17,385 nucleotides of DNA, taken from an uncultured Fibrobacterales bacterium (GTDB taxonomy: Bacteria; Fibrobacterota; Fibrobacteria; Fibrobacterales; CAWVXU01). Below the pieces are notes generated by a model. It saw only the letters and a program-made list of their open reading frames with translations, was not told the DNA's origin and searched no databases. The stretch lies in NCBI GenBank assembly GCA_963934255.1, contig CAWVXU010000058.1:1-17385 (forward strand). Reading direction: 5' to 3'. This document shows positions 761-17,385 of the stretch, one piece after another. The stretch's first letter is position 1. Every line of letters begins with the position of its first letter. The position numbers and the translations under genes were made by a program.

Positions 761-1362
761 TTGAGGGTCTCTAATTTTATTTTTGGCTTCAACGAGAATG
801 AATAAACCACACACGTATGGGATGATGATTTGAGCCTTATAGGTCCTAGAGTAAAAACCAAGAGTCTATTGAGCGACATCCTAATGAGATTCGGGTCGGT
901 GATACAAATTATATCGACACAAAGGAAGGATGGTTGTTTCTAGCCACAATCATTAATTTGTTTTCAAGAAAGGTTGTTGGTTGAGCCATGTCTAGTCCTA
1001 ATGATACTTAGCTCACAATTAATTTGATTATGATCGCAATTAAGTATCGAAAACCGAAAGAGGAAGTTGTCTTTCATTCAGGTTAAGGAGTTCAATATTC
1101 AGGTCTTTCATTTATCTCAACGCTAAAATCAAACAACATTCTGTTAAGTATGACCCGAAGAAGAAATTGTTACGAGGGTACAGTAGCAAAATCATTCTAC
1201 CAACTTTTAAAACGTGAAGAAATCAAAGCATAAAAATAGAGAACTTTGAATATATAGAATTATTCTATAATTCAAAAAGGACACATTGTCAATGTGGACG
1301 ACTATCACCGAAGAATTTCGCAAAGAACTATTATAAGTGTCTATCAAAACGGGTGCGATTCA
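761..1362 (+). mobile_element. Decayed IS3-family element (OrfB/integrase-core pseudogene with right end)
   Basis: Reads PNEIRVGDTNYIDTKEGWLFLATIINLFSRKVVG*AM...VFHSG*GVQY...SMTRRRNCYEGTVAKSFYQLLKRE, then in a shifted frame YIELFYNSKRTH...LSP. Stops at 982, 1009 and 1084. An FYFWLQR trace of the OrfB N-terminus lies near 775-795. Ends ...TGTCTATCAAAACGGGTGCGATTCA at 1362 (terminal CA). Confidence 0.88.
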
Positions 1363-1406: not shown

Positions 1407-2309
1407 TCAGGATTTAGTATTCACCACCTCGTTTTGTTTTTTGTTGTATTCTGCAAAAGCAGGGTTGGCGAAATCGACAGGTACATTGTCTTTGAAATTT
1501 CCAATGATCGCTTCGGCGGTAGCAGGGTTGGTGGCGAAGGGTATATGATAAACATCAGCTAGGCGACCTAAGGCTTCAATGTCAGCATGATGTGGGTGGG
1601 CTGAGAGGGGATCTCTAAAGAAAATAACGGCCCCAATACTTCCGGCAGCAATCATTGCACCAATAGCCTGATCTCCACCTAAAGGACCAGATTGAACCTT
1701 ACGCGACAACAATATCCCCGTTTCTTTGTGCAATAAAGAACCCGTTGTACCCGTAGCCACTAAGGACGATTTCTGGAGTACATCTTTGTGCTTTCGCACA
1801 AAATCCACTAGCACGGGTTTCATAGCATTGTGCGCCACAAGAGCAATGTAGCGTTTGTCATCTACCCAGTTTTCGTGTTCCCCTTCTTTTTTATGTTTGG
1901 CATAGCGAGCCCCAAAAAAGGATTTACAGGACATAGCAAGACGCAAGTCTTCACTGAAAAGAGCTTCAAATGAAGAAACACTTAAAATAGCGACAGTCAT
2001 ATCGGTTACGGCCCGCACATCTGCAGTTCGCAGTGCCTGGCTAGAAAACATGGCTTCTCCGAAAAAATCACCGACGACTAGACCTGCCCGCTTGAGGGAT
2101 TCGACCTCAACTTCGGCCGTGCCTTCAAGAATTATGCCTACAAAGTGGGCAGGTGTGTTGGCTCGGGCAACTAAACTGCCAGCGGCATAATTCTGCACAG
2201 AAAGATGCTTAGATAAATGCCCGAGTTGCAAGGGGCTTAAGTATGATCCAAGATCAGATTCAATGAGAGCTTTTTGGAGAAGAGTTGAAGTATAATCGTT
2301 CGAATTCAT
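1407..2309 (-). CDS. mgsA: Cyclic-nucleotide-binding domain fused to methylglyoxal synthase
   Basis: N-terminal ~135 aa cNMP/CAP-ED fold with phosphate-binding cassette FFGEAMFSSQALRTADVRA. C-terminal MGS motifs IALVAH, ATGTTG, SGPLGGDQ, IFFRDPL, PHHADIEAL.RLA and ATNPATA. Confidence 0.9.
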   Translation of the reverse strand: MNSNDYTSTLLQKALIESDLGSYLSPLQLGHLSKHLSVQNYAAGSLVARANTPAHFVGIILEGTAEVEVESLKRAGLVVGDFFGEAMFSSQALRTADVRAVTDMTVAILSVSSFEALFSEDLRLAMSCKSFFGARYAKHKKEGEHENWVDDKRYIALVAHNAMKPVLVDFVRKHKDVLQKSSLVATGTTGSLLHKETGILLSRKVQSGPLGGDQAIGAMIAAGSIGAVIFFRDPLSAHPHHADIEALGRLADVYHIPFATNPATAEAIIGNFKDNVPVDFANPAFAEYNKKQNEVVNTKS

Positions 2310-2462: not shown

Positions 2463-2578
2463 TTAGTTTTTATTTTCAGATTGAGTTTCAATTCAGTAAT
2501 TCTTCCATTGAAACTTGCCATTCATCCATCATTACTTTTATCTAATAGAAGAAGTCCGTTAGTATATTTTTTTAAGGT
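2438..2578 (-). pseudogene. 3' remnant of a probable gene-cassette ORF cut by the IS3 end at 2579
   Basis: Reads [45 protein letters not shown]. It has one internal TGA, starts exactly at the IS end and stops inside the attC-like hairpin. Confidence 0.4.
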
Positions 2579-2933
2579 TGGACTTCCCCCGATATAGTGG
2601 AAACTTAGTTTAGGGTTGTAGAATACTTCGATATCGTAAAATATTTCTAATCGAGCATCTGCTCTTGTCTTGTAAATCTTCTTCTTAATCAACTCCTTTT
2701 TTATTGTGCTATTAAATGATTCTACAACTGCATTATCGTGGCAATTCCCTCATCGACTCATACTAGTGACAAGATTGTGATCTCTACAAAACGCATCCAT
2801 GAATCTGAATCCTATTGAGAACCTTGATCTGTGTTTATCATAACTTTTGATGTTGGATTTCTAGATGATACTGCTTTTACTAGAGACTCAATCACTAAAC
2901 ATTGGTGCATGTGGGGCTCCATTCCCGACTACC
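2579..2933 (-). mobile_element. IS3-family remnant (3' part of OrfB plus right inverted repeat)
   Basis: The minus strand reads ...LVIESLVKAVSSRNPTSKVMINTDQGSQ*, then after a frameshift [60 protein letters not shown]. Terminal IR TGGACTTCCCCCGATATAGTGGAAAC starts at 2579. Confidence 0.9.
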
Positions 2934-3004
2934 CTCTTCTTCTCAAAGATTGCTGTAATCTGTTCTATAGGTAGCGTGTTGACTTCTATTTCGAGCATAG
3001 AGTG

Positions 3005-3045: not shown

Positions 3046-4929
3046 TTAACTTTTTTTGTTTCTTTGGATTGAATTATTGTCCCATGCTTCATTCTCTTGG
3101 TCAAAATGAGTTGTACCATCTCTGAGTTCTTCTTCAACTCCTTGAATCAATGCACGAGCTTTACTGAAAAAATCTTTTTGACTTACATCCAAATTTAAGA
3201 ATTGATTAAGGGATTCTTCGTCATGTTTTCGAAAGTTAAGACTTGCTTTATGCGCCTGATGAGCGCGAATCCCACTTGCAACAAGAGCATCCTCAGCCAT
3301 TTTTAGTGACGTGTCTAACGTTTCTCGGTAGATGTGTTCAACACCAAGCTTTTTCAATTGAACAGCCATTTTTATTCCTGAGGCTCGAACAAGTAGCTTT
3401 AAATTAGGATAGTGTTGTTTAAGCATTTCTGTCATCTCAAGCGCTTTTTTATCTTCGTCAATAGCAATAATAAACAGGCATGCTTTATCAACTCCCGCAG
3501 AATGCAGCAGGTCCATTCTACTTGCATCCCCATAATATGCTTTTAATCCAAGTTTACGAATCGATTCGACTCTTGAAGCGCTATGGTCTAAAACAGTTGT
3601 AGGGACATCAAAACTTTGCAACATTCGACCGACAATATTTCCAAATCTTCCAAACCCAGCTATAATAACAGGAGCTTGTTCTTGGATGGTATCTGCTGCT
3701 TGAGTTACTGTCGTTTTTTTGCTAATGATCGGACTAAGAACTTTTTCATGTAGAACAAATAAAAGAGGAGTTAAAGCCATAGAAAGTGCTACAGCTAGTG
3801 TAAATTCATTTGAAGTTTGAACACTTAGAATGCCATTTTGTTTTGCAAAAGAAAAAAGCACAAACGCAAATTCACCCCCTCCACACAAGCCCAGAGTAAC
3901 AAGTAATTTATCTTTAATTGAAATCTTAAAAACCGTTGATAACAGGAAAATAACGATTCCTTTTATTAGCATAAAGCTTAGGAGAAAACCTATAATCTTT
4001 ACAGGATAATCTCCTAATAGAGAGAAATCCATTGCTGCACCCACTGAAATAAAGAAAAGGCCAAGAAATAATCCTTTAAAAGGTTCTATTACAGTTTCGA
4101 GTTCTTGTCTATATTCAGATTCAGCTAAAACAACTCCAGCTATGAATGCACCCAAAGCAGGACTTAGTCCAACAGATTGCATTGCTAGTGCAACACCAAT
4201 AACTAAAAACAATGCAGCTGCAGTAAAAATTTCACGCATTCTAGTAGAGGCAATAAATCGGAAGAGTGGGCGAGTTAAAAAGCGGCCCCCAAATATTACA
4301 GCTAAAATAACGAAAATAATAATAATCGGTTCTAGCCAATTAGGAAATGCATGTAACCATGCCTGTAAACCCTCGTCATGATGACCATCACCCTTTGTAA
4401 GAATCGCGTGAGTTGCTAACATGGGTAATACGGCGAACATCGGAATTACGGCAATATCCTGAAAAAGTAAAATGGCAAAAGAAGCTTTGCCACCTTCAGT
4501 TTTCATAAGACCTTTTTCAGCCAGGGTTTGTATAGCAATTGCTGTTGATGATAATGAGAGTATTAAACCTAGAGCAAAGCTCTCCTCTATGTTGAAACCA
4601 AAAAGTAAGGCCGCACCCGTGAATAAAAGAGTGACAAAGACAACTTGAAGACCTCCAAGCCCCATAATTGGTTTTCGAAGCTCCCAGAGCAAAGAAGGCT
4701 TTAATTCTAAACCAATAAGGAAAAGCATCATCACTACGCCAAATTCGGCAAAGTGCATAATGTCCTCGTTACTTCCTCCGAGTAGATTAAAACCATAGGA
4801 GCCTAAGGCTATTCCAGCAAATAAGTATCCAAGAACTGACCCTAAGCCTAGTTTTTTTGCTATGGGGACCATGATAACGGCCGATAAAAGGTACAGAAAT
4901 GCGCGGATTAAGATTTCTTCTTGAGACAT
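3046..4929 (-). CDS. kefB: Glutathione-regulated K+/H+ efflux antiporter (CPA2 + KTN domain), KefB-like
   Basis: HFAEFGVVMMLFLIGLEL, LLFQD, LGAFIAGVVLAESEYRQELETVIEPFKGLFLGLFF, GGEFAFV, KTN GFGRFG, YYGDA and RET motifs. Likely start is ATG 4929 (MSQEEIL), 2 nt after the kefG stop with AAGGAAG upstream. ELET loop, YYGDA and FRKHD resemble KefB more than KefC, but that split is uncertain. Confidence 0.88.
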   Translation of the reverse strand: MSQEEILIRAFLYLLSAVIMVPIAKKLGLGSVLGYLFAGIALGSYGFNLLGGSNEDIMHFAEFGVVMMLFLIGLELKPSLLWELRKPIMGLGGLQVVFVTLLFTGAALLFGFNIEESFALGLILSLSSTAIAIQTLAEKGLMKTEGGKASFAILLFQDIAVIPMFAVLPMLATHAILTKGDGHHDEGLQAWLHAFPNWLEPIIIIFVILAVIFGGRFLTRPLFRFIASTRMREIFTAAALFLVIGVALAMQSVGLSPALGAFIAGVVLAESEYRQELETVIEPFKGLFLGLFFISVGAAMDFSLLGDYPVKIIGFLLSFMLIKGIVIFLLSTVFKISIKDKLLVTLGLCGGGEFAFVLFSFAKQNGILSVQTSNEFTLAVALSMALTPLLFVLHEKVLSPIISKKTTVTQAADTIQEQAPVIIAGFGRFGNIVGRMLQSFDVPTTVLDHSASRVESIRKLGLKAYYGDASRMDLLHSAGVDKACLFIIAIDEDKKALEMTEMLKQHYPNLKLLVRASGIKMAVQLKKLGVEHIYRETLDTSLKMAEDALVASGIRAHQAHKASLNFRKHDEESLNQFLNLDVSQKDFFSKARALIQGVEEELRDGTTHFDQENEAWDNNSIQRNKKS

Positions 4930-4930
4930 A

Positions 4931-5539
4931 CTAAGCTTCCTTTTCGTTTGAATAGAGTGCGTTAGTGTCACTGAGAAGATTTAAATCAAAGCTTTCGTTT
5001 TCAAGAGAGGATAAAAATTTTGAATATTGAATTGATTTTTCGTTCACTTCTAGATCCGAGAGAACATGACTCCCATGAATAACAAAAGGAGGCAGGTATT
5101 TCATTTTACAAAGTTTGGCTGTGAGTTCGAGTGGGCACAACAGTTCTCTAATGGTGTGCCCTTTTTCTCCGTCTGGTTGATACACTTCTCTTGAGCCACT
5201 CGAAGACAAGGCATTAATCCAAATCTTATTTTCTAGGGCGTGCGCATTTGATCCATATGCCCAGCTATGAGTTAAGACTAAATCCAACCATTCTTTGATG
5301 ATAGCAGGAGTAGAATACCAATAGAGCGGGAATTGAAAAACGATAGTATCATGATCGGTTAATAACTTTTGCTCTTTAGCAACGTCAATATCCATGTTGG
5401 GATACTCTTCATAAAGGTCATGAAGTGTTATAGAACTTGGAATGTTCTTGAGTAACTCAGCATGAATACGAGACTTTTGAAGGGCAGGGTGTGCAAAAAG
5501 GATTAAAATTTTTTTATCCGATGAAGTTTGAGGAGGCAT
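4931..5539 (-). CDS. kefG: Kef ancillary NAD(P)H-dependent flavodoxin-like oxidoreductase (KefG/KefF family)
   Basis: ILILFAHP, HDLYEEYP, IDVAKEQ and FQFPLYWYSTPAIIKEWLDLVLTHSWAYG motifs. Immediately upstream of the Kef antiporter. Confidence 0.88.
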   Translation of the reverse strand: MPPQTSSDKKILILFAHPALQKSRIHAELLKNIPSSITLHDLYEEYPNMDIDVAKEQKLLTDHDTIVFQFPLYWYSTPAIIKEWLDLVLTHSWAYGSNAHALENKIWINALSSSGSREVYQPDGEKGHTIRELLCPLELTAKLCKMKYLPPFVIHGSHVLSDLEVNEKSIQYSKFLSSLENESFDLNLLSDTNALYSNEKEA

Positions 5540-5810: not shown

Positions 5811-6245
5811 TTATTCTTCCATCGCCTTGCGTACTTTGAACATGATGGCGAGGTTATTAACAAAAGGAATGAAATTATATGGTCCCATAGCTTCTTCGGT
5901 CCGCGGTATAGGGTGTGCAGAGATGTTTGCGTCAATCGTAGAGATGTAGTCTACCATTTGATCTCTTTCATCGTCTGGAAGTCCACCTCCAATAGCCACA
6001 AAATCAATTGAGTCATTTTTAATTATTTCTTTAATTTTGTCTTTAGAATTACTGGCAATGACATTTCTACCATATCTCTCCCATTCCTCAACTAGAATAT
6101 CTAATGTTGATTGTAATCGGCCAATGACTAAAACTCTTGGTTCCATAAAATTATCCGTATTCTCTATAATATTTGAATTGTCTGTTGAACAACTTAAGAA
6201 GTTAACCAATAAACAAATTATTGTAATGTATTTAACATAAGTCAT
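5811..6245 (-). CDS. Hypothetical lipoprotein (small alpha/beta fold)
   Basis: Start ATG 6245 overlaps the osmC stop (TAATG). MTYVKYITIICLLVNFLSC is a lipoprotein signal. Contains RVLVIGR and IDFVAIGGGLPD. Confidence 0.7.
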   Translation of the reverse strand: MTYVKYITIICLLVNFLSCSTDNSNIIENTDNFMEPRVLVIGRLQSTLDILVEEWERYGRNVIASNSKDKIKEIIKNDSIDFVAIGGGLPDDERDQMVDYISTIDANISAHPIPRTEEAMGPYNFIPFVNNLAIMFKVRKAMEE

Positions 6246-6649
6246 TATGATTGAAACTCCATTTGTACTGGATTTTCTAATAATTTTGAGATCGGGCATT
6301 TGGAAGCTATGGTTAACAAACGTTCTATTTGTGAATCATCAAGGGATTTCTCAAATTGCACAGTCTTAACCATTTTTTTAGTTGTCCCATTTTCCGAAAC
6401 AACACTTTTAAGTTTAACATCTACATTGATACTTCCTACATCCCAGCCCTTTTGGTCCGCATACATTTTAATTGTAATTGCTGTACATGAAGCTAATGCG
6501 GATAGTAAATATTGTGCAGGGTTGGGGTAACGATCTGCTCCACCTAGTGATTCAGGCTCATCCACCATCACTGTGTGTTTAGTTGTTTTGATTTCCATTA
6601 AATAATTATCATTACCCAATGTGCCATTTGCATGTAAGGTTTCCTTCAT
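6245..6649 (-). CDS. OsmC/Ohr family protein (YhfA-like)
   Basis: VDEPESLGG, PNPAQYLLSALASCTAITIKMYA and KCPISKLL with both catalytic-type Cys. Start ATG 6649 overlaps the upstream stop (ATGA) with AAGGAGG upstream. Confidence 0.9.
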   Translation of the reverse strand: MKETLHANGTLGNDNYLMEIKTTKHTVMVDEPESLGGADRYPNPAQYLLSALASCTAITIKMYADQKGWDVGSINVDVKLKSVVSENGTTKKMVKTVQFEKSLDDSQIERLLTIASKCPISKLLENPVQMEFQS

Positions 6650-6870
6650 AATGAATCCTCCTTTGAGTGAGAAGTAAAAGTCAAAGCTCCTGAGGGGCAT
6701 TTACTAATTTGATTTTTCAATTCTTCAGAAGAAGCATTTTCTATTTTTATCCATGGTCTCTCTGTAGGGTTATACACTTTAGGTAATAAATTAATACACA
6801 CAGCCGCATGAGAACATTTTGAAGGATCCCAATGGATAGTGATATCCTTGTTTTTGTAATTTTTTATCAT
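6646..6870 (-). CDS. Divergent 4Fe-4S mono-cluster protein (Fer4_19, YjdI-like)
   Basis: Y.NKDITIHWDPSKCSHAAVC...LPKVYNP..RPWI...CPSGAL motif. Confidence 0.88.
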   Translation of the reverse strand: MIKNYKNKDITIHWDPSKCSHAAVCINLLPKVYNPTERPWIKIENASSEELKNQISKCPSGALTFTSHSKEDSL

Positions 6871-6890
6871 GAATATTATTCCCGTCTAAT

Positions 6891-7274
6891 CTAATTTGAT
6901 TTGATTTTAAGAAGGTGAATATAGGATGGCTTATTTGCAAAGAATAAAAAATGATTCATAGCCATTGCCACAAATGCACCTGCAATACCAGCTGGATCTA
7001 AAAACAAGTGGAACCAGAAAGCATTTAATAAAACTGGAAATAACATGACAAGAGCTAAAGGAACTAGTCGGTTAGAGAGAAGTAATATTCCCGTAACAAT
7101 TTCAACGACAGCTACGGCATTCATTAAATAACCTGTATTTATTAATGCTGACATAAATTCTGCCGCTTCTTGCGGAAGTGGTGGATTCGGAATGAATTGC
7201 AAAAACTTATTCAATCCAAAAATAAAAACTAATAACCCTAATATAATTCGAACAATGATTGCTGCTTTTTTCAT
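6891..7274 (-). CDS. DoxX family membrane protein
   Basis: RIILGLLVFIFGLNKF, TGYLM, EIVTGILLL, PLAL..L.P...N...FH motifs; about 4 TM helices. GGAGA RBS upstream. Confidence 0.85.
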   Translation of the reverse strand: MKKAAIIVRIILGLLVFIFGLNKFLQFIPNPPLPQEAAEFMSALINTGYLMNAVAVVEIVTGILLLSNRLVPLALVMLFPVLLNAFWFHLFLDPAGIAGAFVAMAMNHFLFFANKPSYIHLLKIKSN

Positions 7275-7340
7275 TTTAACTTCTCCATATGAATCTTATT
7301 TAACTGATATAAATATAGAGTTGAAAAAGTTTCAATCCAT

Positions 7341-7895
7341 TCACCTAGATGAAGAAATACTCTGTTTTGATAGCTTTTTCCTAATTGTACTTAATGTTTG
7401 AGGCATCATTCCCAAATAGGAGGCAATCATTCTTTGAGGCACACGATTCGGTAGATCAGGGTATGTTTTTAAGAAATACATATAACGATCCATAGCAGAA
7501 GAAGCCAACAATAACAAGATTCTTTGTTGTAATTGAGACATAGTCTTTTTCAATCTATTTAAATTCTGTAGTAGTTGTTCATTGGTCATATTTGCATCAA
7601 TCGAGTTGTTTTTACTGATTAAGAATACCTCAGAATCTTCTAAACAATCAATAAATAATTTGGTTGGCTCATTAAATTCAACAGCATCAATATCTCCAAT
7701 TACCCAATCTTCTGACCCAAACATATATATGTGTTCTTTACCTTGATCATCAATGATATAACTTCTAATCAAGCCTTTTTTGATATAGATAGCACTCGCA
7801 TTTAATTGACCTGGTTGTTGAATAAATTCACCTTTTTTGAAAATCCTCCCCTGAGCAGAGGAATCTATATTCAATATTTTATGTAATTTACTCAT
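7341..7895 (-). CDS. Crp/Fnr family transcriptional regulator (Bacteroidota-type)
   Basis: KGLIRSYIIDDQGKEHIYMFG.E.W and RY..FLKTYPDLPNRVPQRMIASYLGMMPQTLSTIRK (HTH). Start ATG 7895 preceded by GAGGT. Confidence 0.9.
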   Translation of the reverse strand: MSKLHKILNIDSSAQGRIFKKGEFIQQPGQLNASAIYIKKGLIRSYIIDDQGKEHIYMFGSEDWVIGDIDAVEFNEPTKLFIDCLEDSEVFLISKNNSIDANMTNEQLLQNLNRLKKTMSQLQQRILLLLASSAMDRYMYFLKTYPDLPNRVPQRMIASYLGMMPQTLSTIRKKLSKQSISSSR

Positions 7896-7961
7896 AGACC
7901 TCACTCTGACTATTTTTAGGGGCTTGTTCAAATCTTGTTTACACTTAAAAATTACATTAAA

Positions 7962-11334: not shown

Positions 11335-13398
11335 ATGAAGGACTCAATGAATTTATTGTCACAAGTAAAAAAGTTAGCGCTTATTGCGACTCTATTAATG
11401 ACTACAAGTGTCTCAGCACAAATTTTTTCCATTCTAGATGACTTTGATCGAGATGGGGTGCTTGATATTTTTGATCTAGATGATGACAATGATGGAATAC
11501 TCGACAAAGATGAAAATATTGACCTAAATGCTTCTTGGGATTTTGAAACACCGATTGTTGGTCCTGGAAACAACTTTTTTGGTGCCGAATTTCAGAATTG
11601 GACTCTCATTTCGGGGGACGGGCAAATCAACTTAATACGCCCAACGCATCCTTATGGCGATGTACCTCAAGTAGCTTCAATGGGTAATCAATATGTTGAA
11701 ATCTTTGGAGAAGCTACTTTTAATCGATTATACAATGTGACTAAAGCCACCTCCATAACGGTCGAAATTGATTTTGCACCTTGGAGTCAAAAGCGTGAAG
11801 AAACTAAGATTCAAATCTTTCATTCTAATGGGACTTCAATTCTTGCAGAATCGAATGTGATCATAACAGAGGTTACTGACAATACAGATTGGTACGATAG
11901 AGATGCGCTGTGGCAGACAGCTTCGGTTACTGTTATGCTTGAACCAGGGGACTACTATATCAGATTTCGGTTGGGTAATTATCAAGCATTTGATAATGTC
12001 AGGGTTTCTTCTGCAAAAAGATCTGATTTCGACAATGATGGATTAATTAATAGCTTAGACCTTGATAGTGATAACGATGGTTGTCCTGATGCAATTGAAG
12101 GGGGAGCTTCCTTCGGATGGGCTGACCTTATTGATGAAACTCTCTCTAACGAAGTTGATGCCAATGGCGTTCCTATAATGGCAAGTAATCTTGGGCAACG
12201 TGTAGGGCTGAGCTTGGATGGAAATAACACTGATTCAGAATGTGATCAACCTAGAGTGACTGATGATGTTGGTGGAATTGCACAAGTAAATATTTATGAC
12301 GATGGTGATGGGATAGCAGATAGTTTGTGGATGTCTTTTGATTCTGGATTAAATAATACCCAGACCTTTGATTCTCTCACTGTTTTTTGGGGGAAGGGTT
12401 CAACGACATACTATTGGTCTGATGTAGAGTATTCTGAGGATAAGAGTTCTGTGAGTTTGTCGAATGTCAAATTGAGTCAAGGAGTTTATACAGGTAAAAA
12501 ATCTGATGGTGATCAATCCAGGGTTCGTTTCTACTACTCAGGCGTGATAGACGGCACTCAATATGTTGATCATTTGGAATTACCTTTAGAAGATCATGTG
12601 GGTCCTGTCATTACAAGTGCGACATTATCATTCGAAGATGATTTACAAACTCTCATTGTAAGCTATTCTGAACCAGTCCAAGATGATTTTGGAGACCTTA
12701 CAGAGGGCTTAGAAATCTATCAGATTAAAGATACAAATAGGTTAATTCAAGATTATTTGTATTCGAATTTCTCATATACTATAAATTCTTCAAGTAGCCA
12801 AGTTGATCAATTGGATAGTTTGATTAAGCCTCGGGACTCAATACGGTTAGATTCTCAGCATGGGTTAAGTGACCTCAATGGGAATCGCCCACATCCAATG
12901 AATGCTTTTGTCAAAATCAAAATCAACGACTCAATAAAGGTGGATAAGGGTGCTTTTGCGCGTCAGGTTGATGATGAAGAAGAGTACCCTCAATTTTCAA
13001 TGACTTTGATTGATCAATCCATCTCAGCAAATGAGTATTCACTAATGCACCATACAATTGGCGGAAAATATGAACTCAATATTTACAACCAATTACAAGC
13101 CTATGATAATATTGATCAGTCTCTTGTGGAAATAAAATGGCAAATGTACGTCTATTCAAATCTAGGTGGGAATGTGGATAATCAATCTGGCCAGATAAGT
13201 TGTGATGACGATATTTTTGAGGGTGAAACTTGCCTTAAGAGTGAGAGAGCCTTCTTTTTCAGTTGGAATTTAAGAGATAATTATAATCGAAAAGTGGGAG
13301 TTGGAGCTTATGTCATTTACATCAAAGTGAGTCTATATTACGATGGTGAATTGATCAAAGAACGTCCTGAGAGATGGCTTGCGGGTGTCGGGAGATGA
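11335..13398 (+). CDS. Secreted Asp-rich protein with thrombospondin type-3-like Ca2+-binding repeats and a Fibrobacterota-type C-terminal domain
   Basis: Signal peptide ending VSAQ. DFDRDGVLDIFDLDDDNDGILD and DFDNDGLINSLDLDSDNDGCPDAIEG flank a beta-sandwich. C-terminus YVYSNLG...WNLRDNYNRKVGVGAYV is FlgD-Ig-like. Start is ATG 11335 or 11347. Confidence 0.75.
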   Translation: MKDSMNLLSQVKKLALIATLLMTTSVSAQIFSILDDFDRDGVLDIFDLDDDNDGILDKDENIDLNASWDFETPIVGPGNNFFGAEFQNWTLISGDGQINLIRPTHPYGDVPQVASMGNQYVEIFGEATFNRLYNVTKATSITVEIDFAPWSQKREETKIQIFHSNGTSILAESNVIITEVTDNTDWYDRDALWQTASVTVMLEPGDYYIRFRLGNYQAFDNVRVSSAKRSDFDNDGLINSLDLDSDNDGCPDAIEGGASFGWADLIDETLSNEVDANGVPIMASNLGQRVGLSLDGNNTDSECDQPRVTDDVGGIAQVNIYDDGDGIADSLWMSFDSGLNNTQTFDSLTVFWGKGSTTYYWSDVEYSEDKSSVSLSNVKLSQGVYTGKKSDGDQSRVRFYYSGVIDGTQYVDHLELPLEDHVGPVITSATLSFEDDLQTLIVSYSEPVQDDFGDLTEGLEIYQIKDTNRLIQDYLYSNFSYTINSSSSQVDQLDSLIKPRDSIRLDSQHGLSDLNGNRPHPMNAFVKIKINDSIKVDKGAFARQVDDEEEYPQFSMTLIDQSISANEYSLMHHTIGGKYELNIYNQLQAYDNIDQSLVEIKWQMYVYSNLGGNVDNQSGQISCDDDIFEGETCLKSERAFFFSWNLRDNYNRKVGVGAYVIYIKVSLYYDGELIKERPERWLAGVGR

Positions 13399-13412
13399 GA
13401 TAGATAATTCCA

Positions 13413-13438
13413 ATAGACATAGACATAGACATAGACAT
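13413..13438 (+). repeat. Intergenic simple sequence repeat (ATAGAC)x4 + AT
   Basis: Read directly; lies between the stop at 13398 and the ATG at 13466. Confidence 0.95.
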
Positions 13439-13465
13439 TCAATAAAAAAAAGACAGGAAATATAT

Positions 13466-15247
13466 ATGAAAAAGTTTGATATTCTAATAGTGGCATGCGG
13501 ATTAATCATGGGAGGGTGTACCGAAAATACTTACGTTACAAATGATGAATGCCTTGAAGACGGGACGTGTATCGCTGTAGAAGCCGAATCTAGTGATACA
13601 AGCGATATTATTGAAAAGGCTTGGGAGGGTGTAGCAAATATTGACGTCGTCTACTTAGCCCAAAAACATGTGTTGGAACCCGACAATGCCATGTTTAAAC
13701 TTTTTAGTGATCTAGAAGCTCTTATCAAGGTAAACGTCTCTTCATCAGAACAAAGTTCAGCCCCCACTGTGATAGCCACCCTGAGCTTGGACGGCGAGAG
13801 CACGACACTTGAACTCACTGGCCCAGATACTTTACCGGTTTCCATCCCCAAGGGGTTGGGTGTAGAAGACCATAAATTCGAAAATAGTTTTACAACGACT
13901 ATCCCTAAAGAATGGGTCCAACCTGGCTTGACTATTGAGGTGAAGGCTGGTGAGAATACTAGATTTTTCAACGACTTAAAAATAGGGGCTCCTTCAAAGA
14001 TCATTATGACCATGTTTGATGTTCATTACTTTACCAATTCGCCAGGTGATTATCCTGCAGGTTGGCTTCCTGAAATGGAATCAAAATTCCCCACCTCTGA
14101 GTTAGAACTCCGCCGCATACCAAACGTCGACTTCCCGGACCTCATTATCCCCGCCCGCGCCGATATGGGCTTCCCCTCCGTCAGGATCGGATCTAAAGAC
14201 GAATACCAAGAATTGACAGGATCCCCGTTTGATGGTGAACAGGCCGCGGCTTTAGCCTGGAAGGGTGCCCTCAAGGGAGCCAATGGGATCAGTGGCAGAT
14301 ATAGTCTGTATTATGTGAACATCTATGGCGCTTGGGCTGGTGGACAAGCGGGTAACTTTGGTGGCGTGGGTGCTGGTGATTCGCCAGGAGTCTTGCTTCA
14401 TGAGCTTGGCCACGCCTTCTCACTGCCACACTGGCAGGGAGTTCAAGAATACCCTTACAAGGGCGAAATGTATGGATTGACACCGCCTAGACCTTTAGAG
14501 AACGATGAACAAATTCACGCGGGTCCTACCTGGGCTTATGATATCCCTACTCAGAAATTTATACCTCCTACTATTCAGTGGAATACAGTGGCAGGGCCAG
14601 CCCATGAAAGATATAGTGTCGGTACTCTTAAGCTTGACCCCATGCATGGCGGAGGTGATGGTGACCAGGAAGAGGGTTTCGTTTTCAGGCATTTTGCAGA
14701 TTACTCCATGAACAAAATGCAATTATGGCTTGAGGAACATATCGTCGTGTGGAATGCATCCTTGAACAGTTACGCCAGTTGGAACGATGCTGCAGGAGAC
14801 TATAGTACACTTGTCAGTAACAATGGTGTGGAATACCCTGTCGAACGGGATGTTGAAGTGATTACTGTGATGGCAGCCACAAGTGCCGTTTCACCTCAAG
14901 CCACATTAGTGTATCCGCCAATCGGACCTTTTTCCTCAGGAATCATTGACACTTTTGACCCATCGATATCGGCCGACCGTACCAAAGCCGATCAGGTATT
15001 CTGCTATGGTGATGGTTGTGATCTTAGCATGAGAGTTACGCAGGGTGGCAAGGTGTCAGTCTACATGCTGAGACAATCTATGGATCCAAATGCAGATCCA
15101 ATGAGTACAAGTTCTTTGTATACTCAAGCCGTTAACTTAAGAGCTTCTGATGGCGAAGTGACCAAGATTGAACTTTTGAATACTCCTGATGCAGAGGTCA
15201 ATGGATTACCTTCCAATCCTACTGTGATGGATACTTGGGAAAAGTAA
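13466..15247 (+). CDS. M66 family (StcE/TagA/dictomallein-like) zinc metallopeptidase lipoprotein
   Basis: Lipobox IMGGC, IPKEWVQPGL, zinc motif HELGHAFSLPH, WAYD and DPMHGG Met-turn. Start ATG 13466 with AGGA RBS. Confidence 0.82.
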   Translation: MKKFDILIVACGLIMGGCTENTYVTNDECLEDGTCIAVEAESSDTSDIIEKAWEGVANIDVVYLAQKHVLEPDNAMFKLFSDLEALIKVNVSSSEQSSAPTVIATLSLDGESTTLELTGPDTLPVSIPKGLGVEDHKFENSFTTTIPKEWVQPGLTIEVKAGENTRFFNDLKIGAPSKIIMTMFDVHYFTNSPGDYPAGWLPEMESKFPTSELELRRIPNVDFPDLIIPARADMGFPSVRIGSKDEYQELTGSPFDGEQAAALAWKGALKGANGISGRYSLYYVNIYGAWAGGQAGNFGGVGAGDSPGVLLHELGHAFSLPHWQGVQEYPYKGEMYGLTPPRPLENDEQIHAGPTWAYDIPTQKFIPPTIQWNTVAGPAHERYSVGTLKLDPMHGGGDGDQEEGFVFRHFADYSMNKMQLWLEEHIVVWNASLNSYASWNDAAGDYSTLVSNNGVEYPVERDVEVITVMAATSAVSPQATLVYPPIGPFSSGIIDTFDPSISADRTKADQVFCYGDGCDLSMRVTQGGKVSVYMLRQSMDPNADPMSTSSLYTQAVNLRASDGEVTKIELLNTPDAEVNGLPSNPTVMDTWEK

Positions 15248-15312
15248 GTTAATCAAAACGAGTCGAAGAATTCAGACACGAAAAATATTGAGCTAATAGC
15301 CAAGGAAAATTT

Positions 15313-17385
15313 ATGCTAAAACATCTCTTGTTACTTCTAATAATCTGCTTCTCTTCGACAGTTTTTTCTCAGGGAAAACTAAAGGTATTTATTCTTGCTG
15401 GTCAGTCCAATGCAGAAGGACATGGGGATCTTGGCCCTGTGACTACGGCAGGCACCTTGGAACATTTTTATGCCAACAGACAAGGTAATGAGTTTGATTT
15501 CATAAAAGACAATAACAGTAATTGGGCAACTAGATCAGATGTCTGGGTGCGGTATGATACTGAATCTAACGGATTATTAGCCGATAATTTGAAGGTAGGT
15601 TATGGTGGCTGGTCTCAGCAGATCGGCCCCGAATATGGAATGGGACATGCTTTGGGGGAACATTTTAATGATCAAGTGCTTATCATTAAAACAGCTTGGG
15701 GAGGCAAAAGTTTGGCGGTTGATTTCAGACCACCGAGTGCGGGAGGAACTACAGGTCCTTACTACACTACAATGATGAATGATATCAAAGCGTCAATGAA
15801 TAACATTGCTACTGAGTTTCCAGGGTATAATGGAGAAACGATAGAGATAGCAGGTTTTGTTTGGTTTCAAGGATGGAACGATGGAGGAAGTGATGCACAC
15901 AAAGCGGAGTATGAAAGTAACTTACTCAATCTAATTAAAGATGTTCCAGTAGATCTAAATGTACCAGATTTACCAATTTTAGTTGGATTAACAGGAAACG
16001 GTGGCCGCGACACGACCACTTCTGATGGGTGGGTAAAAGGGCTTCAAACCAAGATCGTTCCAGCGCAAATTGGTGCAGTTCAATCTACACCTCACTCTGT
16101 CATTGATTATGCTGAAACTCGTGATTTTTGGATAGAGCCATCAAATTCGCCGGGAAATGGTCTCCACCATTGGAACAATAATGCTCAGAGTTATCTGCGC
16201 ATTGGAGATGAATTTGGGAAAAAGATGATAGAACTAATTGAGGGAAAGGCCACGGCTCCTGAAGGAAAGTTGAAGATTTATATCCTTGCTGGGCAGTCTA
16301 ACATGGAAGGTCATGGGAAAATATCAGCTGATCAGAACATGTTGACCAAAAATGGAGGAATGGGGAGTTTGGATTACACAATTCAAAACGATAACAACAA
16401 CACCTTTTCACATCTTAAAGACAGTGGTGGGAACTATAAAATACGCGATGATGTCTGGGTATATTACAAAAGAGGTGGCACGACGGAATTGAAAGGTGAT
16501 TTATCAACGCAATATGGTTCGGATCCAACTAACATAGGTCCAGAACTCCAGTTTGGTCACCTAATGGGAGATCATCACGGCGAACAAGTACTTATTATAA
16601 AAACTGCTTGGGGTGGTAAAAGCCTGGCCAATGACTTTCTTCCTCCAAGCTCTGTCAGTCCTGCGGGTTATGCCTCTGTACCAACAGTAGATGGGGATCC
16701 TGGTTTCTACTTCATGGAAACGATTAGGATTGTGAACGATGTCCTTACCAACCTAGAGACCCACTTCCCGGGTTATGATGGGAATGGATATGAGCTTGCA
16801 GGTTTTGGTTGGCATCAGGGTTGGAACGATGTGATTGACGCAAATAGCGTTAATGCCTACGAATCAAACATGAGAAACTTCATACTTGATGTAAGAGATT
16901 CCCTTGGAGTTCCCAAGCTACCTTTTGTTGTTGGGCTGAGTGGAATGCATGGACCCTTAAGTAATTTTGAGGGACAATATTACGAAGGCCGTGTTGTAGG
17001 ATTATGGAATGCACAATTTGCTATGGCCGATTATACAAAGTATCCTGATTTTGCTGATAATGTAACTACCGTGGATACCAGAGATTATTGGAGAAGCGGT
17101 GCGAATTCCCCTTCGAGTCAAGAATACCACTGGCACGGTAATGCAGAAACCTATTTTTGGATTGGCGATGCCATGGCTAAAGGAATGCAAGGACTTTCAG
17201 GAAACACGCAAGAAGAATGTAATGGAATACCTGAGGGCTATATTTATCTGGGTGATGAAGGTGATACGAAAACGCTACCTTCCACAAGTGATGTGGCGTA
17301 TGGTCACGGTTGTGAGTTTACTTACTTGTATAATGTTTCAGGGAGTGTTGCTATAAACAATGGTACTTTTGGTGGAGACCCTGCA
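15313..17385 (+). CDS. Secreted tandem sialate O-acetylesterase-like (SASA/SGNH) protein, 3'-truncated by the window
   Basis: Open frame from ATG 15313 (AAGGA RBS) to the window end. Signal peptide MLKHLLLLLIICFSSTVFSQ. Two domains each carry ILAGQSN (15400, 16291), IGPE, IIKTAWGGKSL, W.QGWND and a C-terminal HW..NA (16168, 17128). Not in the ORF track because it has no stop in the window. Confidence 0.9.
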   Translation, partial: MLKHLLLLLIICFSSTVFSQGKLKVFILAGQSNAEGHGDLGPVTTAGTLEHFYANRQGNEFDFIKDNNSNWATRSDVWVRYDTESNGLLADNLKVGYGGWSQQIGPEYGMGHALGEHFNDQVLIIKTAWGGKSLAVDFRPPSAGGTTGPYYTTMMNDIKASMNNIATEFPGYNGETIEIAGFVWFQGWNDGGSDAHKAEYESNLLNLIKDVPVDLNVPDLPILVGLTGNGGRDTTTSDGWVKGLQTKIVPAQIGAVQSTPHSVIDYAETRDFWIEPSNSPGNGLHHWNNNAQSYLRIGDEFGKKMIELIEGKATAPEGKLKIYILAGQSNMEGHGKISADQNMLTKNGGMGSLDYTIQNDNNNTFSHLKDSGGNYKIRDDVWVYYKRGGTTELKGDLSTQYGSDPTNIGPELQFGHLMGDHHGEQVLIIKTAWGGKSLANDFLPPSSVSPAGYASVPTVDGDPGFYFMETIRIVNDVLTNLETHFPGYDGNGYELAGFGWHQGWNDVIDANSVNAYESNMRNFILDVRDSLGVPKLPFVVGLSGMHGPLSNFEGQYYEGRVVGLWNAQFAMADYTKYPDFADNVTTVDTRDYWRSGANSPSSQEYHWHGNAETYFWIGDAMAKGMQGLSGNTQEECNGIPEGYIYLGDEGDTKTLPSTSDVAYGHGCEFTYLYNVSGSVAINNGTFGGDPA

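Follow-up and report, generated by a model that had tools for sequence, protein, structure and literature searches.

A methylglyoxal synthase fused to a cyclic-nucleotide-binding domain in an uncultured Fibrobacterales bacterium

Methylglyoxal synthases and proteins controlled by cyclic nucleotides

It has long been asked why bacteria keep an enzyme that produces a toxic metabolite, and the usual answer is the recycling of phosphate under sugar excess. The canonical methylglyoxal synthase, MgsA (EC 4.2.3.3; TIGR00160), a homohexamer acting on dihydroxyacetone phosphate (DHAP), is represented by structures from Escherichia coli (1B93/1EGH), Thermus (2X8W) and Bacillus subtilis (6F2C), and the roles of its catalytic residues are described in the available text of PMC7843640. 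Cyclic-nucleotide-binding domains (CNBDs) occur in the regulatory domains of PKA and PKG, in the HCN, MloK1 and SthK channels and in CRP. In the Pycsar and Pucsar systems, a dedicated cyclase is paired with a CNBD-TIR or 3TM effector, according to the available portions of PMC11224242 and bioRxiv 10.64898/2026.08.12.744502. In Synechococcus, the available text of Dore et al. 2020 (PMC7522525) describes a module, Syn_GI122, in which adenylate cyclases adjoin CRP and a cAMP-regulated MscS.

Here, we describe a 300-residue protein encoded in a stretch of 17,385 nucleotides (the window) from an uncultured Fibrobacterales bacterium. It shares with MgsA the fold (Z 19–21), 43–52% identity over the domain and the catalytic and phosphate-binding residues, and passes both NCBIfam cut-offs; unlike MgsA, it has twice the length, an N-terminal CNBD and changes of D20 to N, R150 to Q and D99-P100 to H-A, and its methylglyoxal synthase (MGS) activity is putative. 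With the PKA/PKG, channel and CRP domains it has in common the CNBD fold (Z 16–18), the G-E...R cassette and a PKA-like spacing, whereas its output is a lyase of central metabolism, with no HTH, channel or kinase and no conserved residue of the CRP S128 type. Like PycTIR and PucTIR, as far as the two sources above describe them, it joins an N-terminal CNBD with a G/E/R pocket to a potentially toxic enzyme, but it differs from them in having no TIR or 3TM effector, cognate Pyc/Puc cyclase, defence context or conserved N143-type residue. Many Synechococcus copies have a Syn_GI122-like context, whereas the gene in the window belongs to another phylum and lies outside any such island.

No published description of a methylglyoxal synthase fused to a CNBD or to EF-hands was found in a literature search that had most subscription journals outside its range, and existing annotations, where named, call these proteins plain 'methylglyoxal synthase'. 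The CNBD-MGS architecture of this marine gene is real and widespread, recurring in many ocean microbes, and apparently undescribed; curated databases may already note it.

Domain architecture, nucleotide pocket and active site

A first-pass annotation of the window, made from the letters alone, had reported a single 300-residue ORF joining a CNBD with an intact phosphate-binding cassette to an MGS domain. Our analysis confirms both the fusion and the cassette, and places the gene on the minus strand, with a start at 2309 and a TGA stop at 1407–1409; the plus frame of the interval is stop-rich. The features of the gene are the following:

1407..2309, minus strand: CNBD-methylglyoxal synthase fusion gene, 300 aa (Pfam, NCBIfam, AlphaFold2 model)
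1947..2195, minus strand: cNMP-binding beta-barrel PF00027, residues 39–121 (Pfam; structural domain about residues 1–145)
2022..2060, minus strand: phosphate-binding cassette G84-E85...R94-T95-A96 (G84, E85 and R94 invariant in the alignment)
1878..1946, minus strand: long C-helix, residues 122–144, leading out of the CNBD in the direction of the first MGS strand (AlphaFold2 model; putative coupling role)
1434..1856, minus strand: MGS catalytic domain and C-terminal helix, residues 152–292 (NCBIfam, alignment, structure superposition)
1827..1829, minus strand: N161, equivalent to E. coli D20 (N in 115 of the 120 sequences and 30 of 33 clusters)
1434..1436, minus strand: Q292, part of a Y-x-x-x-Q tail and equivalent to E. 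coli R150 (Q in 115 of the 120 sequences)

In Pfam, PF00027 matches residues 39–121 (E = 1.1e-12; 48.2 bits against a cut-off of 27.5) and PF02142 matches residues 167–260 (E = 1e-15), and the protein passes the MgsA models TIGR00160 (156 bits; cut-off 146.9) and PRK05234 (160 bits; cut-off 84), the former being narrowly missed by most of its homologues. The AlphaFold2 model, built on an alignment of 57 sequences, has a pLDDT of 85.7. Residues 152–275 of the model superpose on MgsA (Z 21.2, rmsd 1.6, 122 aligned), residues 2–143 superpose on the cAMP-bound CNBD of HCN2 (Z 18.3, rmsd 2.6, 137 aligned) and also match cNMP-bound HCN, SthK and PKA domains (Z 17–18), and a 23-residue helix (122–144) links the two domains. 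All of the best 120 homologues listed, down to 40% identity, carry both domains in one chain, which rules out a fusion by chance or by assembly; the cluster of the window itself counts among the 120, and a list ordered by full-length score is biased towards two-domain matches.

In PycTIR and CRP, the G/E/R residues make the contacts with the ribose and the cyclic phosphate, according to the available text of PMC11224242. The CNBD described here has the canonical beta-barrel, G-E...R cassette and B and C helices, and G84, E85 and R94 are found in 120 of 120 sequences (the query and 119 homologues) and in each of the 33 clusters that share less than 70% identity. Only 10 of the 131 CNBD columns, among them those of G84, E85, R94 and A96, are at least 98% conserved, with a mean of 49%, and T95 is present in only 60 of the 120 sequences. 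Columns 135–140, which we take to be the place of CRP S128, are variable across the family, with no conserved residue at the base-selecting place of the C-helix (CRP S128, PycTIR N143, XC_0249 E146). Since this place is not conserved, the protein itself does not show whether cAMP or cGMP is preferred. The lack of a base-selecting residue would also suit a CNBD that is unresponsive to cyclic nucleotides, either vestigial or reading another metabolite, in a protein that is a constitutive MgsA with baggage, and several distant CNBD-MGS and EF-CNBD-MGS forms have indeed no recognisable G-E...R cassette. Nevertheless, this explanation seems quite improbable in view of the invariance of G84, E85 and R94 across the 33 clusters and of the co-occurrence of the fusion with cyclases (see below).

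The MGS domain had been described as complete, and this is so for its extent, but the equivalents of E. coli D20 and R150 are replaced by N161 and Q292. The query retains the catalytic set H19, K23, T45–T48, S65, D71, D91, H98, D101 and R107 (E. coli numbering) as H160, K164, T186/T188/T189, S207, D213, D233, H240, D243 and R249, and H19, K23, T45, T47, T48, D71, D91, H98, D101 and R107 have equivalents in each of the 33 clusters. The register of the tail is confirmed structurally, residues 151–294 of the model aligning to residues 9–152 of 1EGH. D20 is kept in 84 of the 86 stand-alone MgsA of a short-protein search, the other two having N20, and in many distant CNBD-MGS (19/35); many stand-alone MgsA have no C-terminal tail.

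In the available text of PMC4133812, two routes are proposed for phosphate allostery in MgsA, one of them through the D20-R150 salt bridge, and the D10N mutant of the Thermus enzyme (equivalent to D20N) shows a fall in kcat from 326 to 0.41 per s, about 800-fold, in the absence of any tail arginine. The magnitude of this fall leads us to predict a low basal activity for the fusion and allows near-inactivity. Judged from the sequence, the two changes suggest that the native control has been rewired and the basal activity lowered, and the enzyme may be nearly dead. The MGS domain could then be a DHAP/phosphate sensor or a scaffold, or catalyse a different reaction, integrated with the cNMP signal; this would agree with the Thermus data, with the family-wide changes D99H (118/120) and P100A (119/120) next to H98, with the missing glyoxalase matches in the host genome and with the degenerate second MGS copies that occur in tandem forms. 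We find such a near-dead or repurposed domain unlikely, given that all 33 clusters keep the catalytic base D71 together with the other active-site residues, that mean column conservation is far higher in the MGS domain (0.81) than in the CNBD (0.49), that N20 also occurs in stand-alone MgsA, and that 14 of 19 host genomes have no MgsA-like match besides the fusion.

Host genome, family distribution and linked cyclases

In the 92%-complete host genome, the fusion is the only MgsA, and the other PF02142 match sits in a frame of 1096 aa. Among 40 genomes of the same order, none matched the MGS part, and 23 gave weak matches to the CNBD only. At 45.8%, the GC content of the fusion gene falls on the 99th percentile among 1379 long ORFs. 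The neighbouring elements are listed below, the transposase remnants from a six-frame read:

874..1170, plus strand: decayed integrase-core (rve) transposase remnant with 3 stops, downstream of the fusion gene (PF00665, E = 4.3e-16; IS3-like by our own reading)
2788..2916, minus strand: second decayed rve remnant, upstream, between the fusion gene and kefC (PF00665, E = 0.0032, below cut-off; recognisable over about 2500–3000)
3046..5539, minus strand: kefF-kefC-like pair (best matches KefC PRK03562 and KefF PRK00871, both below cut-off)

Taken together, the absence from same-order genomes, the GC content and the flanking remnants indicate that the fusion gene likely arrived horizontally. A promoter and terminator scan around the gene gave nothing above shuffles. 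Contigs at least 99% alike to parts of the gene were present in 4 of 4 marine RNA libraries, which is a weak hint of expression, as the runs were chosen by the fusion gene and may hold DNA.

CNBD-MGS was found in 19 of the 80 GTDB loci kept. Record titles name Deltaproteobacteria, Latescibacterota, Sedimenticolaceae, Verrucomicrobiota, Gemmatimonadetes, Brocadiaceae and Spirochaetales, and, among the cyanobacteria, Synechococcus, Cyanobium and Trichodesmium erythraeum IMS101. The first-pass annotation had named, as contrary to its reading, homologues that are the sole housekeeping mgsA of their genomes with no signalling linkage. They are indeed the only MgsA-like match in those 14 of 19 hosts, but their distribution is patchy rather than that of a housekeeping gene, and a signalling linkage is present. 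Thirteen loci (L004, L009, L010, L011, L014 and related ones), labelled Latescibacterota, Verrucomicrobiota, Gemmatimonadetes and Opitutia, are linked at 70% identity or more in differing gene contexts, reflecting either recent spread across phyla or binning errors. In a Myxococcota-labelled MAG (L003, 301–5004), a double-CNBD aminotransferase class V (939 aa) and a double-CNBD protein (475 aa) are divergent from the fusion gene and read as a cluster of cNMP-controlled enzymes.

Class III cyclases are present in 17 of the 19 host genomes of CNBD-MGS. The Fibrobacterales host has five class III cyclase matches and 12 CNBD matches; none of the five cyclases is on the contig of the fusion gene, which bears out the earlier remark that no cyclase is visible in the window. 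In one Synechococcus genus, 12 of the 27 genomes searched carry CNBD-MGS, and class III cyclases occur in 11 of these 12 carriers against 3 of the 15 non-carriers (Fisher p = 3.4e-4, a value overstated by kinship, as kin are counted as independent, and given without genome completeness). All 10 intact Synechococcus copies are in cyclase-bearing genomes, and four of them lie at a second site at least 0.8 Mb from any cyclase, so that hitch-hiking with an island is not the whole explanation. In the single cyclase-free carrier (G080), the copy carries a frameshift and the island has been lost, and in another genome (G081) the copy has lost its cassette while the cyclases remain.

Cyclases near the homologues, which the first-pass annotation had proposed to look for, are found, although almost all at loci of one type. 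Among 69 loci where a single ORF encodes both domains, many of them under 3 kb, the fetched flanks hold a class III cyclase in 16 and a phosphofructokinase (PFK) in 11; of the 16, 15 are Synechococcus-type loci between speA and alaS, and elsewhere a flanking cyclase was seen in one case only. Genes for FecR, CRP-type proteins and CNBD-MscS are also found at the speA-alaS loci, as is an ATP-PFK (PRK06830 type), and the cyclases linked there are CHASE2 sensor enzymes. In 12 cyclases aligned, Lys is present in all, accompanied in 10 by Thr/Asp, presumably as the adenine-selecting pair, and in two by Ala. PFK occurs in 5 of the 27 genomes of the Synechococcus genus, all of them carriers, and in four it is within about 3 kb of the fusion gene; L013, L016 and L154 are examples of the island carrying this ATP-dependent enzyme. 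Dore et al. 2020 described such an island as a cAMP module, the available main text mentioning neither methylglyoxal nor PFK (PMC7522525). Dore 2023 (PMC10119275) and two supplementary text files of PMC7522525, among which the island table may not be included, hold no matching mention either.

The same MGS subtype is also found behind EF-hands, in records of Nostoc, Brasilonema, Hormoscilla and Synechococcus, and behind EF-hands and a CNBD in a Flavobacteriales record. In 81 further representatives scanned for partner domains, which are part of 150 listed, the partner was a CNBD alone in 17, EF-hands alone in 16, both in two and CoaE in two, with none recognised in 44. The two eukaryote-named clusters looked up, out of 10, were Fibrocapsa japonica ('calmodulin') and Pelomyxa schiedti. 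Once 21 degenerate domains had been dropped, the Y-x-x-x-Q tail was present in 15/15 CNBD-N, 19/20 EF-N and 3/3 EF-CNBD rows, compared with 0/19 CNBD forms keeping D20 and 1/26 stand-alone rows. Other EF-hand-MGS fusions (L023–L027, L161; P0256, P0305, P0365) occur in cyanobacteria and microbial eukaryotes and include an isochorismatase-EF-MGS protein and tandem forms in which one of the MGS copies is degenerate; in P0357 and P0364, dephospho-CoA kinase is fused to an ordinary D20-type MgsA.

In a careful tree of 69 MGS domains, the 54 sensor-fused domains split from the 15 stand-alone ones at a support of 100/97, and the EF-hand forms join the group of the query at 99/98; this tree excludes seven rows on long branches, every row lacking a labelled partner and 12 of the 26 stand-alone rows, and has a small stand-alone sample and no outgroup. 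The D20-bearing CNBD forms were an ancestral grade in a quick tree, but the careful one places the spirochaete forms among them within the main clade, and for this reason no order of events is claimed. Among 120 short matches, 34 have the family motif, nearly all starting in or just before the domain; these were not accepted as stand-alone forms of the subtype and look like truncated gene calls, one of them (P0148) looking chimeric.

Possible control and role of the fusion enzyme

The proposal that a cyclic nucleotide controls methylglyoxal output is thus supported indirectly, by the invariant pocket, the co-occurrence with class III cyclases, the cAMP island and the exchange of the CNBD for EF-hands. 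Cyclic-nucleotide gating of a working enzyme is probable, activation by the ligand is clearly more likely than inhibition, and a role in metabolic control rather than phage defence is likely. To the complete reading, an MGS of low basal activity that is switched on by a cyclic purine nucleotide, most likely cAMP, as a spill valve for triose phosphate, we give an even chance. A sensory cyclase would fire, cAMP would rise and bind to the CNBD, and the binding would move the C-helix (residues 122–144), which leads into the strand bearing H160, N161 and K164. The shift would bring the MGS oligomer to its active state, in which DHAP is converted to methylglyoxal and free phosphate. Control by cNMP would then replace part of the ordinary phosphate allostery of MgsA, and the enzyme would act as a signal-triggered spill valve, as one output of the cAMP regulon. 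If so, an enzyme of a glycolytic bypass would join the direct cAMP receptors of bacteria, and the cAMP island of Synechococcus, where the gene travels with a PFK absent from the other searched genomes of the genus, would gain a metabolic output.

The sign of the response deserves consideration. Some CNBD enzymes of other kinds are activated by their ligand. The same is true of CNBD-TIR effectors, according to the available text of PMC11224242, and we take this as a pointer to activation. It could be argued instead that the enzyme is active without ligand and that cAMP, as a low-carbon signal, shuts a wasteful bypass off. Canonical MgsA is itself controlled by an inhibitor, Crh, which counts for this opposite sign. 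Phosphate, another inhibitor, controls it too (PMC4133812, available text), and in E. coli cAMP is high at low sugar flux while methylglyoxal synthesis goes with sugar excess (PMC12096831). The low basal activity predicted from N161 and the activation of ligand-bound CNBD effectors make the opposite sign rather unlikely, and a toxic product would favour an enzyme that is off by default.

How the product is disposed of bears on a spill valve. The kefFC-like pair lies 0.7 kb upstream of the fusion gene, with a transposase remnant in between, and tblastn searches found kef in none of 83 related loci, including L109, which is 77% identical. The host genome gave no match to glyoxalase I, glyoxalase II or GshB, and one weak match to DJ-1. 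These observations led us to reject a functional link with kef, whose linkage the first-pass annotation had suggested checking, and the adjacency is probably a coincidence. Glyoxalases near homologues, suggested likewise, amounted to a single glyoxalase-family neighbour (L113). Across the 19 host genomes, the glyoxalase I cut-off was passed in only eight, all of them cyanobacteria; with so few hosts showing this enzyme, the route by which methylglyoxal is normally disposed of is in many cases not seen. Such sparse glyoxalases weaken the case for a high-flux bypass outside cyanobacteria, and fit a tightly closed or low-output enzyme.

The idea of a Pycsar-type effector, also raised from the sequence, fared worse. 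In an abortive infection of the Pycsar or Pucsar kind, a phage-triggered cyclase would make the cNMP and the enzyme would poison the cell with methylglyoxal. The CNBD-effector architecture recalls PycTIR and defence systems using cGMP exist, as recorded in the partial sources available, the distribution is patchy and mobile (0/40 same-order genomes, GC at the 99th percentile, transposase remnants), and the neighbouring cyclases match PycC models at the domain level (E 1e-21 to 1e-27). Against this, PADLOC gave no match for the fusion protein at E 1e-8, and of 249 proteins scanned (243 of the 286 non-redundant neighbours within 5 kb and six window proteins) 23 matched, those checked being CNBD/cyclase domains or housekeeping enzymes (RecQ-type and DEAD helicases, FtsH, TatD, DNA ligase), with no clustering of defence genes near the homologues. 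No cyclase-effector pairing of the Pycsar type occurs on the contig, which has no cyclase, or at related loci, where the neighbours are signalling and housekeeping genes; the linked CHASE2 cyclases adjoin CRP, CNBD-MscS and PFK and not a cognate effector. The word 'methylglyoxal' does not occur in the available main text of the Pucsar preprint (bioRxiv 10.64898/2026.08.12.744502). Finally, none of 79 viral loci encodes the fusion, all matching the MGS part only. A role in defence is therefore very improbable. The same search rejected phage carriage of the fusion; these 79 IMG/VR loci (L189–L267) encode a stand-alone MgsA-like protein, and may do so in phage genes or in host flanks.

A broader reading seems possible, though tentative. 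A lineage of MgsA in marine bacteria and microbial eukaryotes may have swapped phosphate allostery for interchangeable cAMP and Ca2+ sensors, with a site dampened by D20N and rescued by the ligand, and organisms such as Synechococcus and Trichodesmium would in that case make methylglyoxal deliberately, in answer to a signal. An enzyme under cAMP or calcium control would mean that cells start methylglyoxal production in response to a signal; in major primary producers of the ocean, this output could serve as phosphate release, stress signal or chemical weapon.

The remainder of the window encodes a TIGR02147 protein, among others, which points to Fibrobacterota as the probable host phylum. An ORF entering from the contig end (3–665) has an 18-base tandem repeat of about three copies and a weak Kazal domain. 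Small redox and stress genes of low GC (32–34%), of Crp/Fnr-type, DoxX, divergent 4Fe-4S and OsmC-like families, occupy 5811–7931, and 13379–17385 encodes a peptidase M66 protein and, after it, a second protein that has two SASA acetylesterase domains and is cut by the contig end.
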